From an uncultured Bacilli bacterium (lineage in GTDB: Bacteria > Bacillota_I > Bacilli_A > RF39 > UBA660): DNA of 64,000 nt. Under the pieces are notes generated by a model. That model was not told where the DNA came from. It saw nothing but the letters and a program-made list of their open reading frames with translations, and did no database searches. This document shows positions 43,218 through 45,842 of this stretch, one piece after another. The position numbers were made by a program, and so were the translations under genes. Location: positions 217 to 64,216 of the forward strand of contig CALVXF010000022.1 of NCBI GenBank assembly GCA_944368875.1, given 5' to 3'. Within the stretch, counting starts at the first letter, position 1, and each line of letters starts with the position of its first letter.

Positions 43218-43547
43218 ATGAATAATTATTTAATTCCAGCTAATAGTAAAAAGTCAATGCTTATACTTGGTTTGTTTACAGTTACTGATTTAATTATATT
43301 TGGTGTTGGAATTACGATTAGTTTATTATGTATGATGATATTTGAACTGAGTTCGTTATTGTCTATTATTTTGGTGTTGTCACCAGGTGTGATTGCTTCA
43401 TTCTTGGTATTTCCAATTCCAAATTATCATAATGCTTTAACTTTTTTGATGTCGATGTTCAATTTTTATACTAATAGACAGAGATTTGTATGGAAGGGGT
43501 GGTGCTTTTCTTATGGCGAAAGCGAAAAGCAAGTTTACAAACGATAA
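43218..43547 (+). CDS. VirB3-like small two-TM protein
   Basis: About 110 aa with two TM segments, directly preceding the VirB4-like ATPase (the PrgI/ConD position). Confidence 0.45.
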   Translation: MNNYLIPANSKKSMLILGLFTVTDLIIFGVGITISLLCMMIFELSSLLSIILVLSPGVIASFLVFPIPNYHNALTFLMSMFNFYTNRQRFVWKGWCFSYGESEKQVYKR

Positions 43548-44058
43548 TTTTGTTCCTGTTAAAAGTATTACTAATGGAATGATTATATTGGATAATAATT
43601 ATAAAGTTACAGGAGTTAAAATAATGCCTAAAAATATTTTTATTCTTGATAGAAATACACAAGATAGCATTATCGTTAACTTACGAAGGGTATACGATAG
43701 TATTGATTATGAATTTTGGTTAATTGCAGCTGATCGACCAGTTGATATCAATGTCTATTTATCTAACTTACAACTTTTGTACAATAATAGCCAAAATCCT
43801 ATAAAGAAAAAACTAATTATGCAAGATATCAATAAAGCTAATATGTTTATGAATAATAATGTTGTTGATACTGAATTCTTTATTCTATTTAAAGAAAAAG
43901 ATATGGAATTATGTCAAAAACGTATTCGTAATTTAATCAATAATTTAGCTCAAGCCGGATTGACATCAAATCAAACTAGTAATGAAGATTTACGTGTAAT
44001 AATTGATAATTTTTTAAATGGTGGTAAAACTACTACGTTTGGGACGGTGATTGGATAA
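43516..44058 (+). CDS. VirB4-like ATPase, N-terminal domain encoded as a separate ORF
   Basis: Start at MAKAKSKF after GGGGTGG. Stop TAA shares its A with the next ATG (TAATG). Size and position match a VirB4 N-domain. Confidence 0.45.
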   Translation, partial: AKAKSKFTNDNFVPVKSITNGMIILDNNYKVTGVKIMPKNIFILDRNTQDSIIVNLRRVYDSIDYEFWLIAADRPVDINVYLSNLQLLYNNSQNPIKKKLIMQDINKANMFMNNNVVDTEFFILFKEKDMELCQKRIRNLINNLAQAGLTSNQTSNEDLRVIIDNFLNGGKTTTFGTVIG

Positions 44059-45842
44059 TGGATATTAAAACACAATTAGCTCCAAAAGGGTTGGAGTTTA
44101 GACCAAGAGATTTTATTATAAGTGATAAATATGCTACTATTTTGACTGTTGTTTCATATCCTAAATATATTGATACTGCATATTTAGCCAATATCACGAG
44201 TATGCCAGGGATAAAAATGGTTATCAAGCATATTCCTCTACCATTTAGTACAATTACTAAAATGATTAATAAAGAAATTACTGATTTAAAACAAAGATAT
44301 CAAGAAGAAAGAGATAGAACACTGCAAGAACGTATTCGTCAAGATTATGAATCACTTGAACAATTTATTCATATGTTGGCAAGTACGCAAGCTAAAATAT
44401 ATGATTTTCAAATGCACATTATGATTACAGCTGATTCACATGATGAATTGGTTGCTAAAAAGGTACAATTAAAAAATTATACAGAAGCTATGGAAATGAT
44501 GACTGTACCTTTGATGTTTGAACAAGAAAAAGTTTTAAAATCTATTTTACCAATTTTTCCAAAGCAAGATATTGAAGATCGTATAGGAATACCTATTCCT
44601 TCAACAACTATTGCTGCGATGTATCCGTATATATTTGATAGTGTTAAAGACCCAGGATTAAGTACTTTACTTGGTACTGATTTTTCTGGAGGAGTAGTTT
44701 TATTTAATCAATTTTTATATCAATTAAAGAAAGAACACAATCGAAATAATGCTAATATGATTATTTTGGGTACTTCAGGTAGTGGTAAATCAACAGCGGC
44801 TAAATTATTATTACGCAGCCATTTTAGAAATAATTATAAAGTTGTTGTTATTGATCCTGAAGGTGAACTAGAAGAAATGACTAAATTCTTTGGTGGTGAT
44901 TTTATCGACCTTGGAAAAGGTGGCAAATTTGGTATGATCAATCCTCTAGAAGCTGTCTTAGATGCTGATGAAGATGAACTAAAAGAAGGATTAGGATATA
45001 CTATTCTTACACGTACTTTGCAAACTTTAAAGGCCTTTTTAAAGTATTACGATCCAAGTGTTGAAGAAGATGTTATTACGATGTTTAGTGAAATAGTACA
45101 AGATACTTATCGCCGTTTTGGAATTGGTTTTGATACAGATTTTTCTAATTTTACTTCAAATGATTATCCTACTTTTAAAGATGTTTATGCAACAATTAAA
45201 GGTAAATTATTAGCTATGCCACAGGAGACACATGAAAAAGCAATTTTAGAAAAACTAGAGTTGAAAATTAGACCGATTATTAAAGAATTAAAATATTATT
45301 TTGATGGTCATACAACAATTAAACCACAAAGCGATTTCATTGTTTTTAATATTCGTGAACTTATGAATAGTGATGTTAATATAAGAAATGCTTTATTTTT
45401 TAACATTTTAAAATATGCATGGGGTATGACTTTAGATAGAAATATTAATACCATTTTAATGGTTGATGAAGCCCACGTTTTAATTAGTGGAAATAATACA
45501 TTGGGAGCTGATTTCTTAGCTCAAATTCAAAGACGTTCTAGAAAATACAATACGGGTACTATTATAATTACTCAACAACCAAGTGATTTTAGCGATCCAG
45601 GTATTATTACTCAAGGAAAAGCAATTTTTGATAATGCTTCATATTATCTTGTTATGGGGTTAAAAAAACAAGCTGTTGAAGATTTAGCAAATTTAATTGA
45701 TCTAAATGACAATGAAAAAGAAAATATTAAAAGATATCAACAAGGAGATGCGTTGTTTGTGTGTGGGAGTCGCCGTATGCAGATAAATGTTATCGCAACT
45801 GAAGAAGAGTTAGATTCTATGGGCCGAGGTGGAGGTTTCTAA
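44058..45842 (+). CDS. VirB4/TraE/PrgJ-like T4SS ATPase (C-terminal ATPase domain)
   Basis: Walker A GTSGSGKST. Walker B MVDEAHVL. Combined length with the upstream ORF is about 775 aa. Confidence 0.7.
   Translation: MDIKTQLAPKGLEFRPRDFIISDKYATILTVVSYPKYIDTAYLANITSMPGIKMVIKHIPLPFSTITKMINKEITDLKQRYQEERDRTLQERIRQDYESLEQFIHMLASTQAKIYDFQMHIMITADSHDELVAKKVQLKNYTEAMEMMTVPLMFEQEKVLKSILPIFPKQDIEDRIGIPIPSTTIAAMYPYIFDSVKDPGLSTLLGTDFSGGVVLFNQFLYQLKKEHNRNNANMIILGTSGSGKSTAAKLLLRSHFRNNYKVVVIDPEGELEEMTKFFGGDFIDLGKGGKFGMINPLEAVLDADEDELKEGLGYTILTRTLQTLKAFLKYYDPSVEEDVITMFSEIVQDTYRRFGIGFDTDFSNFTSNDYPTFKDVYATIKGKLLAMPQETHEKAILEKLELKIRPIIKELKYYFDGHTTIKPQSDFIVFNIRELMNSDVNIRNALFFNILKYAWGMTLDRNINTILMVDEAHVLISGNNTLGADFLAQIQRRSRKYNTGTIIITQQPSDFSDPGIITQGKAIFDNASYYLVMGLKKQAVEDLANLIDLNDNEKENIKRYQQGDALFVCGSRRMQINVIATEEELDSMGRGGGF

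Follow-up and report, generated by a model that had tools for sequence, protein, structure and literature searches.

In the 64,000-nucleotide stretch of DNA analysed here (the window), the VirB4 ATPase of a type IV secretion system (T4SS) is most probably (at roughly 0.88) naturally split between two adjacent ORFs: ORF1, of the TrsD/TraD kind, would supply the first sub-domain (~180 residues) of the VirB4 N-terminal domain, and ORF2 the rest of that domain together with the Walker A/B ATPase domain. Judged by comparison of related loci, such a two-gene VirB4 appears to be no mutation but the conserved, usual arrangement among Gram-positive secretion systems of this class.

Results

ORF1 (43513..44058; all genes and sites given here lie on the forward strand) runs from an ATG at 43513 to a TAA at 44056–44058 and encodes 181 aa, correcting the start at 43516 and the length of 180 aa proposed in an earlier reading made from the letters of the window (the sequence-only reading). 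Apparently a stand-alone, TrsD-like N-terminal module of VirB4, it carries the precomputed Pfam annotation TraC-like (PF26593), and its protein is already present in public data (P0001). ORF2 starts with the ATG at 44058–44060 and, as first described, occupies 44058..45842 and encodes 594 aa, with Walker A (GTSGSGKST) at approximately residues 238–246 and Walker B (LMVDE) at approximately residues 467–471. Upstream, a gene for a VirB3-like small membrane protein (PrgI-like, 109 aa; 43218..43547) overlaps the start of ORF1 by 35 nt; its assignment draws on precomputed Pfam annotation of the identical gene at loci L001, L002 and L004 (PF26592, PrgI_like), on a weak Pfam TcpE match, and on a position matching that of the ‘PrgI family’ gene of plasmid pBMB67.

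Aligned to full-length VirB4, the two ORFs prove collinear with it and complement each other, in keeping with the original suggestion that together they make up one VirB4. On the NCBIfam model NF045975, ORF1 covers positions 98–276 and ORF2 positions 295–889 (E 4e-105), with no overlap between the segments, and on a fused homologue of 800 aa (P0242, encoded in a syntenic T4SS cluster) ORF1 aligns at residues 17–137 and ORF2 at residues 223–799, leaving ~40 residues between the two parts that align with neither; a search with P0242 as query returned three proteins. ORF2 also matches positions 186–731 of the CD1110 family and Pfam P-loop_TraG/AAA_10/DUF87. Both ORFs fall under the curated cutoffs of the full-length models (for ORF2, 352 bits against 590 for NF045975, 166 against 325 for CD1110 and 73 against 643 for TIGR00929), and a single polypeptide above cutoff is replaced here by two ORFs. 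The other features of a VirB4 were nonetheless found: a C-terminal RecA-like ATPase domain with both Walker motifs in ORF2, N-terminal domain homology in two pieces (ORF1 and the N-terminal part of ORF2), and neighbouring VirB3-like and T4SS genes (VirB6, VirD4, hydrolase). Similarity of ORF1 to VirB4 N-terminal domains is present, as had been anticipated, but remote: a PDB sequence search with ORF1 returned only noise, whereas its AF2 model (pLDDT 81) gave, in Foldseek, R388 TrwK/VirB4 for all of the top 14 matches (best E 7.5e-4).

The position of the break differs from that first proposed, namely the border between the N-domain and the Walker A/B core. Because residues 200–592 of ORF2 match PDB 4AG5, the C-terminal domain of T. 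pseudethanolicus VirB4 (E 6e-57), ORF2 appears to retain ~200 N-domain residues ahead of its ATPase domain, and the junction to lie inside the N-terminal domain. Could ORF1 then be an independent accessory protein, either a VirB4 N-terminus duplicated and since diverged or an unrelated factor of the TrsD type, beside a VirB4 that is already complete? The remoteness of its similarity would suit such a role, as would the absence from the literature of any function assigned to TrsD (PMC12102498). However, ORF2 lacks the very segment that ORF1 supplies, its matches to three full-length models beginning only at position 295 of 894, 186 of 752 and 253 of 792; the same complementarity recurs in pXO2, pSK41 and pBMB67; and in P0242 the ORF1-like part is the sole N-terminal module. 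An accessory role is therefore improbable.

The stop codon of ORF1 and the start codon of ORF2 share 1 nt in a TAATG at 44056..44060, just as the sequence-only reading had it (the junction reads ...GTG ATT GGA TAA TGG...). An overlap of this kind is, on its own, unremarkable in the window, where it recurs between the genes that meet at 17644 and at 32666 and several further pairs overlap by 4 nt; what does exceed chance is the conservation of the two-ORF arrangement across 81 non-redundant related loci. ORF2 lies in the +2/−1 frame relative to ORF1 (an offset of 545 nt), a difference that by itself excludes a simple nonsense mutation.

Ahead of ORF2 stands a Shine-Dalgarno (SD)-type site, GGGACGGTGAT (44041..44051), lying within codons 177–180 of ORF1 and recognised by codon constraint and by 16S duplex energy. 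Its GGTGAT, which is the usual SD in the window, is placed 6 nt before the ATG, within the last codons of ORF1, and the predicted duplex with the 16S 3′ tail reaches −14.6 kcal/mol, the background in the window being −2.9±2.6. Synonymous choice is constrained over the GGG-ACG-GTG at the end of ORF1: 77/78 loci have ACG for Thr178 and 82/82 have GTG for Val179, compared with a background use of 4–16%. Together these values indicate that ORF2 has its own strong and conserved ribosome-binding site, held by constraint at synonymous positions. Two marks of a coupled gene pair are thus present, an overlapping or abutting stop and start kept in relatives and a downstream ribosome-binding site inside the upstream ORF. 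Of the translational coupling that had been proposed, this close junction with its internal, conserved binding site stands, but not obligate coupling, the strong SD being apparently accessible: a search at the junction for mRNA structure that would hide the ORF2 start, conserved or otherwise, found none (z-score −0.11, consensus −1.2 kcal/mol). True coupling of ORF2 to ORF1 is thus no more than a possibility.

Homologues of ORF1 are numerous (at least 7,922 found), and lengths are uniform, the best 120 homologues of ORF1 all having 176–207 aa and the best 120 of ORF2 all having 592–595 aa. The C-terminal tail of ORF1 (NFLNGG..TTFGTV) is conserved. Genomes of 80 species yielded 81 non-redundant loci for comparison of related alleles at the junction, as the sequence-only reading had recommended, and two ORFs were kept in 81/81, all from other species, with a spacing of −11 to +8 nt. 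At least eight types of stop/start geometry were seen: the 1-nt overlap of stop and ATG occurred in 53/81 loci, and others included ATGA, a stop and ATG separated by 1 nt, overlaps of 8–11 nt, and the in-frame TAAATG and TAATAAATTATG. The split is conserved across many species even as the junction sequence differs. The junction of the window itself recurs unchanged in four independent assemblies. Ratios of dN/dS were 0.05–0.20 across both ORFs (0.05–0.15 in ORF2), indicating purifying selection on each.

These comparisons also bear on whether the ORFs might be joined in translation, by programmed ribosomal frameshifting or by readthrough of the stop codon, into a full-length VirB4, possibly made beside the separate products. 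Both frames are open over the short interval 44028–44058, and most relatives have ORF2 in the −1 frame, which speaks for such a mechanism. Frameshifting is nevertheless rejected because the frame relation varies (+2 in most relatives, +1 in at least 14, and in frame with one or two intervening stop codons in 2); moreover, the overlap holds no slippery heptamer of the X XXY YYZ type, no conserved RNA structure lies downstream (the z-score and consensus energy being those given above), and what is conserved instead is an ATG with a properly spaced SD. A fused product is accordingly very improbable. As for pseudogenisation of a once continuous VirB4 gene by a frameshift or nonsense mutation of recent date, or its breakage by sequencing or assembly error, to which the differing frames and the fused full-length VirB4s of related systems (P0242; NCBIfam models of 752–894 positions) might lend colour, it has next to no probability given a split in every locus through so many geometries, some of them in frame, the uniform lengths, the repeat of the junction between assemblies, the low dN/dS of both ORFs and the conserved ATG and SD of ORF2; of the two alternatives left by the sequence-only reading, a natural split or a recent inactivating mutation, the comparative data bear out the former and refute the latter.

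Further T4SS genes surround the pair. A VirB6/TrbL-like polytopic membrane protein (41365..43197; Pfam TrbL_4) is encoded upstream, a cell-wall hydrolase with a CHAP domain (45862..47520; Pfam CHAP, E 1e-14) and a VirD4-type coupling protein (48253..50535; Pfam T4SS-DNA_transf, E 1.8e-58; 303 bits against a cutoff of 250 for the NCBIfam CD1115 family) downstream, and a VirB11/CpaF-type T2SSE ATPase (33904..35142; Pfam T2SSE, E 1.7e-27) elsewhere in the same cluster. The unknown proteins of the cluster have 540, 898, 435, 329, 300 and 264 aa, and a PDB sequence search with the two largest was negative. Pfam and NCBIfam gave no integrase or relaxase family for the ORFs between 27628 and 52238, a search that divergent relaxases could escape. 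Of the features of an ICE, the cluster thus shows neither an integrase or recombinase together with a relaxase beside the T4SS and coupling protein, nor, in comparison with two relatives on one side, variable presence or an insertion site. The right-hand neighbours VTT, RmuC and RNase R are the same in two other species (one side compared), and divergence of the T4SS ATPases is about that of housekeeping genes. The cluster appears to be vertically inherited, with no detectable relaxase or integrase.

Discussion

If VirB4 is naturally split, the VirB3-like gene, ORF1 and ORF2, which overlap or abut, would be co-transcribed and translated at near-equal levels, with ribosomes either reinitiating at TAATG or loading at the internal SD. 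The ORF1 protein would then bind ORF2 non-covalently, rebuilding a VirB4-like N-terminal domain. In R388, the VirB4 N-domain binds VirB3 and mediates dimerisation of VirB4, and VirB3 wraps that domain over residues 15–400 (PMC9259494); by analogy, it may be through the rebuilt domain that the ATPase hexamer docks onto the VirB3-like membrane protein. So assembled, the ATPase would power the surrounding type IV secretion system.

For annotation, a ‘hypothetical protein’ of ~180–220 aa upstream of a DUF87/VirB4-type ATPase in this class of Gram-positive T4SS would be the missing N-terminal module of VirB4, and ATPases of ~600–670 aa in the class should not be labelled truncated or pseudogenes. 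The natural break within the N-domain would also mark a separable sub-domain, one that could serve studies of the way in which VirB4 is anchored to VirB3 and to the membrane in bacteria that have a cell wall, from which, to our knowledge, there is no full T4SS structure. A split VirB4 is unsurprising to T4SS specialists, the resemblance of TrsD to the VirB4 N-terminus having already been published (PMC12102498, citing Guglielmini et al. 2014); a literature search for ‘split VirB4’ and variants of the term returned nothing relevant, and a T4SS nomenclature review leaves the split unmentioned.

More tentatively, and with the balance somewhat against it, the split VirB4 could be part of a T4SS fixed in the chromosomes of uncultured, small-genome gut Mycoplasmatota/Bacilli, inherited vertically and domesticated for a use other than ICE self-transfer, in which the TrsD-like module would be an ancient and functional adaptor between VirB3 and the ATPase and not the outcome of neutral fission. 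Domestication is suggested by the lack of a recognisable relaxase or integrase, by the same locus in different species, and by conserved ATPases alongside fast-evolving surface components; such a machine may be likened to the TrsD/VirB4/PrgI system reported to be essential in an epibiotic Patescibacterium.

The sequence-only reading had set out from Gram-positive VirB4s as invariably single polypeptides, a premise that fails for TraE: in pSK41 and pRE25/pIP501, a TraE of 653–672 aa is preceded by a separate TrsD/TraD gene of ~210–227 aa, and the pXO2/pAW63 layout likewise has two genes. The order VirB3-like protein, ~200-aa protein and ~600–670-aa ATPase is common to the window, pSK41, pRE25/pIP501 (with its TraD/TraE pair), pXO2/pAW63 and pBMB67. 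TrsD is known to be common beside VirB4 and remotely homologous to its N-terminus (PMC12102498), and ORF1 resembles it in both respects, lying as a protein of about that size between VirB3-like and VirB4-type ATPase genes and being a remote homologue of the first part of VirB4. ORF1 alone gave no match to the NCBIfam TrsD model NF041427 at E≤0.01, and its pBMB67 homologue matched at 3e-10, under cutoff. With pGO1/pSK41 TrsD and TrsE/TraE (pGO1 subclass, MPF_FATA) the window shares the succession of small membrane protein, soluble protein of ~200–227 aa, ATPase of ~600–670 aa and CHAP hydrolase; pSK41 TrsD matched the ORF1-family profile (92.7%, E 4e-7), and the pSK41 ATPase, like ORF2, lacks the first N-terminal module (TraE covers model positions 265–893). 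pSK41 differs in the 14-nt spacer, instead of an overlap, between trsD and the ATPase gene, and in being a plasmid with a relaxase, where the cluster of the window is chromosomal with no recognised relaxase.

The closest annotated homologues of ORF1 are on Bacillus cereus-group plasmids (31% identity by tblastn; hhalign score of 97.9% for pBMB67), of which pBMB67, pXO2 and pAW63 carry triples of 104–111, 222–227 and 630–645 aa. The 227-aa protein of pBMB67 matches TrsD, VirB4_plasma (97–259) and TIGR00929 (3–136). In pXO2, the 222-aa protein covers positions 95–279 and the 644-aa protein positions 303–887 of the full-length VirB4 model, as complementary as in the window, and CDS 11, 10 and 9 of pAW63, an experimentally conjugative plasmid (PMC1196294, PMC9673590), have the same three-gene layout (PMC1196294). 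Direct hhalign comparison of the ORF1 family with pRE25/pIP501 TraD and with the pXO2 222-aa protein was not significant, and what links the family to these two is synteny together with other models that both sides match. The three B. cereus-group plasmids also resemble the window in having a T2SSE ATPase and TrbL/VirB6, but their middle proteins are ~40 residues longer than ORF1 at the C-terminus, their junctions differ (an in-frame spacer of 3 nt in pBMB67, 16 nt in pXO2), and their systems are carried on plasmids that have a MOBP relaxase.

Single-polypeptide VirB4s, among them Mbov_0397 of mycoplasma ICEs, C. difficile CD1110 and the metagenomic P0242, have 750–900 aa in one ORF. The families of Mbov_0397 and CD1110 are the top scorers for ORF2 (352 and 166 bits), and the Mbov_0397 model includes an N-terminal segment matched by ORF1, but these proteins have, between the two parts, residues to which neither ORF aligns, and ORF1 and ORF2 miss their curated cutoffs. 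R388 TrwK/VirB4 (PDB 7O42, 7O41, 8RTB), the top structural hit for the ORF1 model and the mechanistic template used above, is Gram-negative and a single chain of 823 aa, with ~10% sequence identity to ORF1. Finally, the VirB3–VirB4 fusion proteins of some conjugative systems (PMC12102498) show that the boundaries between VirB3, the VirB4 N-domain and the VirB4 core are evolutionarily plastic, although the direction there, fusion, is opposite to the fission seen in the window.

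A VirB4 encoded by two overlapping genes

ORF1, a 181-aa TrsD-like module, starts at an ATG at 43513 (+), and not at 43516 with 180 aa as the sequence-only reading had it; its product is identical to a public protein (P0001) recorded on at least 15 contigs. Read directly from the sequence (...ACG GTG ATT GGA TAA TGG AT...), the ORF1 stop TAA (44056–44058, +) shares one nucleotide with the start ATG (44058–44060, +) of ORF2 (44058..45842, +), bearing out the TAATG at 44056–44060 and the 594 aa previously reported for ORF2. Neighbouring genes in the window often overlap by 1 nt or 4 nt (as at 17644 and 32666), so this overlap is by itself unremarkable.

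Both products matched NF045975, the NCBIfam mycoplasma-ICE VirB4 model (894 positions), ORF1 at positions 98–276 (E 4.6e-14) and ORF2 at positions 295–889 (E 4e-105); the matches are collinear and non-overlapping, and that of ORF1 is the similarity to the VirB4 N-terminal region for which a check had been proposed. The ORF2 match to the CD1110 VirB4 family begins at position 186 of 752. A single-chain metagenomic homologue of 800 aa (P0242) carries both TraC-like and P-loop domains: its residues 17–137 resemble ORF1 and 223–799 resemble ORF2, with around 40 residues between these stretches matching neither, and its gene lies in a syntenic T4SS cluster, following genes for TrbL/VirB6 and for a 90-aa product. 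Residues 200–592 of ORF2 also align with the crystallised VirB4 C-terminal domain of T. pseudethanolicus (4AG5, E 6e-57). The break therefore falls inside the VirB4 N-terminal domain (residues 15–400 in R388; PMC9259494), rather than separating that domain from the Walker core, as had been proposed.

Conservation and selection

A search with ORF1 returned at least 7,922 clusters of homologous proteins. The top 120 were all 176–207 aa long and all carried Pfam PF26593 (‘TraC-like’); the best 120 ORF2 homologues were all 592–595 aa. A scan with a single genome for each species gave 169 relatives. The 80 used, from gut samples and labelled uncultured Bacilli, Tenericutes, Mycoplasmatota or Mollicutes, gave 81 non-redundant loci together with metagenome contigs, and two ORFs were kept in 81/81. 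Junction sequences varied among them: stop and ATG overlapped by 1 nt (TAATG or TGATG) in 53 loci and by 4 nt (ATGA) in at least 6, were separated by 1 nt in 9, and lay within 8–11-nt overlaps in 9, with in-frame TAAATG and in-frame TAATAAATTATG found in one locus each. The junction was identical in four independent assemblies, and dN/dS against seven relatives was 0.06–0.20 for ORF1 and 0.05–0.15 for ORF2, with dS saturated. Of the two alternatives first offered, a naturally split VirB4 is thus the correct one, on the strength of the 81 split loci, their varied junctions and purifying dN/dS.

Programmed frameshifting at the junction is unlikely: the frame relation of ORF1 to ORF2 is not constant among relatives, and both a slippery heptamer and a conserved RNA structure are absent. 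The other original alternative, a recent nonsense mutation, fails because ORF2, starting 545 nt from the ORF1 start, lies in a different frame, and because the two-ORF form is present in every locus. Recent mutation, assembly error and pseudogene are all excluded by the 81 split loci, the four assemblies and low dN/dS.

One long contig (L093, contig_4320, 449 kb) has many cluster genes in fragments, VirB6, hydrolase, VirD4 and RmuC among them, as is typical of uncorrected long-read assemblies; its ORF1/ORF2 pair is nonetheless intact, with junction TAG-T-ATG. Seven MAGs (L018, L021, L030, L033, L072, L073, L085) labelled Muribaculaceae, Bacteroidaceae or Ignavibacteriales carry this low-GC, Bacilli-type locus with 64–75% identity, which most likely reflects mislabelling or contamination during binning and not transfer.

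Translation signals

Synonymous sites in the last ORF1 codons are strongly constrained: Gly177 is GGG in 62/78 loci (background use 17%), Thr178 is ACG in 77/78 (9–16%) and Val179 is GTG in 82/82 (4–14%), so that the motif GGGACGGTG(A/G)T is fixed. GGTGAT is the usual Shine-Dalgarno (SD) variant among window genes, and GGTG stands approximately 7–9 nt from the ORF2 ATG in junction variants read by hand. With the 3′ tail of a Bacillus-type 16S rRNA, the ORF2 SD is predicted to form a duplex of −14.6 kcal/mol (window background −2.9 ± 2.6). Such an arrangement fits termination-reinitiation coupling and, equally well, initiation of ORF2 on its own from a good SD. Of the translational coupling originally proposed, the close stop and start with an SD inside ORF1 stand, but no RNA structure hiding that SD was found at the junction; strict coupling is something we infer. 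ORF1 has a strong SD of its own (GGAAGGGGTGGTG, predicted −14.3 kcal/mol) and overlaps the upstream VirB3-like gene (43218..43547, +) by 35 nt (43513–43547; 26 nt in the relative L005), so the VirB3-like gene, ORF1 and ORF2 form one overlapping three-gene unit.

In place of canonical GGAGG, many window genes (for example at 226, 5446, 7774, 13238 and 26124) have GGTGAT or AGGTGAT, pairing with the anti-SD in its 5′ part. Predicted GTG/TTG starts without an SD (1697, 15395, 21085, 29283, 39830, 48253, 50931) are probably not true starts.

Collinearity, conservation, selection, the internal SD and similarity of fold have been demonstrated; the mechanism is drawn from R388, in which VirB3 wraps the N-terminal domain of the central VirB4, and N-domains mediate VirB4 dimerisation (PMC9259494). 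By analogy, ORF1 would be an adaptor sub-domain between the VirB3-like membrane protein and the core of the ATPase. Its C-terminal tail (NFLNGG..TTFGTV, residues 166–181; 44020–44055), invariant across 40 homologues and predicted to be disordered in isolation (pLDDT 31–41), may be a docking peptide, its conservation being partly nucleotide-level since the ORF2 SD lies inside it.

The surrounding T4SS cluster

The cluster (27628–52238, approximately 27.6–52.2 kb) encodes a T2SSE ATPase, RcpC-like protein, VirB6, VirB3-like protein, the split VirB4, CHAP hydrolase and VirD4, with no relaxase or integrase detected in it by Pfam or NCBIfam. It is flanked by scpA/scpB and tRNA-Leu (26124–27509) on the left and VTT/RmuC/RNase R/SmpB (52290–59127) on the right, the right-hand neighbours being the same in two other species (L091, L092). 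Identity to these two was 72–79% for the T2SSE ATPase, ORF1 and ORF2, about the divergence of housekeeping RmuC (72–76%); 57–61% for VirD4; 24–32% for the 494-aa protein, VirB6 and the 219-aa protein; and 27% over a short local match for the hydrolase, where another hydrolase type did not take its place. The shared neighbours and RmuC-like divergence of the ATPases suggest that this chromosomal T4SS was inherited vertically and is not a recently acquired or typical ICE.

The hydrolase slot directly 3′ of the VirB4 core differs in enzyme type by species (CHAP in the window, 45862–47520; Peptidase_M23 in L091, 12351–14126; SpoIID-domain after the ATPase in L005 and L092), beside adjoining ATPase genes of ~78% identity. 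Low identity marks the envelope-exposed parts (39830–43197, 47530–48189) as against the cytoplasmic ATPases; the 494-aa protein has a weakly T4SS-pilin-like C-terminus, and the 219-aa protein is a putative lipoprotein. A secreted, cysteine-rich 898-aa protein (29970–32666) had no family or PDB match. Its gene is overlapped by 1 nt by that of a DUF5411 protein (32666–33067), followed by RcpC/CpaB-like and T2SSE ATPase genes, giving the left half of the cluster a Tad-like flavour. On the right flank, a pair of RNase R-type genes in tandem (RNB + CSD2 + S1; 54379–56487, 56562–58715) lies just upstream of smpB.

The same layout in characterised plasmids

The three-gene layout is common to several characterised plasmids: pBMB67 (PrgI family 111 aa, hypothetical protein 227 aa, DUF87 ATPase 630 aa), pSK41 (135 aa, TrsD 227 aa, 672 aa), the pIP501-type pRE25 (127, 209, 653 aa), pXO2 (104, 222, 644 aa) and pAW63 (CDS 11/10/9: 105, 223, 645 aa; PMC1196294). 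The 227-aa protein of pBMB67 is clearly homologous to ORF1 (hhalign 97.9%) and also matches the TrsD model (3e-10), VirB4_plasma 97–259 and TIGR00929 VirB4_CagE 3–136; pSK41 TrsD matched a broader ORF1-family profile (92.7%, E 4e-7). In pXO2 the 222-aa protein covers VirB4_plasma 95–279 and the ATPase 303–887, and the model match of the pSK41 and pRE25 ATPases begins at positions 265–294. ORF1-profile matches to pRE25 TraD and the pXO2 222-aa protein were not significant on their own. The premise that Gram-positive VirB4 proteins are single polypeptides of about 650–820 aa needs amending, the 672-aa pSK41 ATPase, for example, being preceded by a separate TrsD.

pAW63 is conjugative by experiment (PMC1196294, PMC9673590), and pGO1/pSK41 and pIP501 serve as standard models of plasmid conjugation (PMC4027160, PMC4981023), so the split need not preclude function. 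TrsD, a member of the pGO1 subclass of MPF_FATA with no assigned function, is remotely homologous to the N-terminal portion of VirB4; in Patescibacteria it is, next to VirB4, the T4SS component of highest abundance (PMC12102498). Our literature search found no paper stating outright that the cognate ATPases lack this portion, a lack that would turn each such pair into a split VirB4. The ingredients of the split-VirB4 idea are already known, and Pfam has a domain for the N-module: a TrsD-type N-module with a VirB4 core is a known arrangement, to which the window locus adds one more case.
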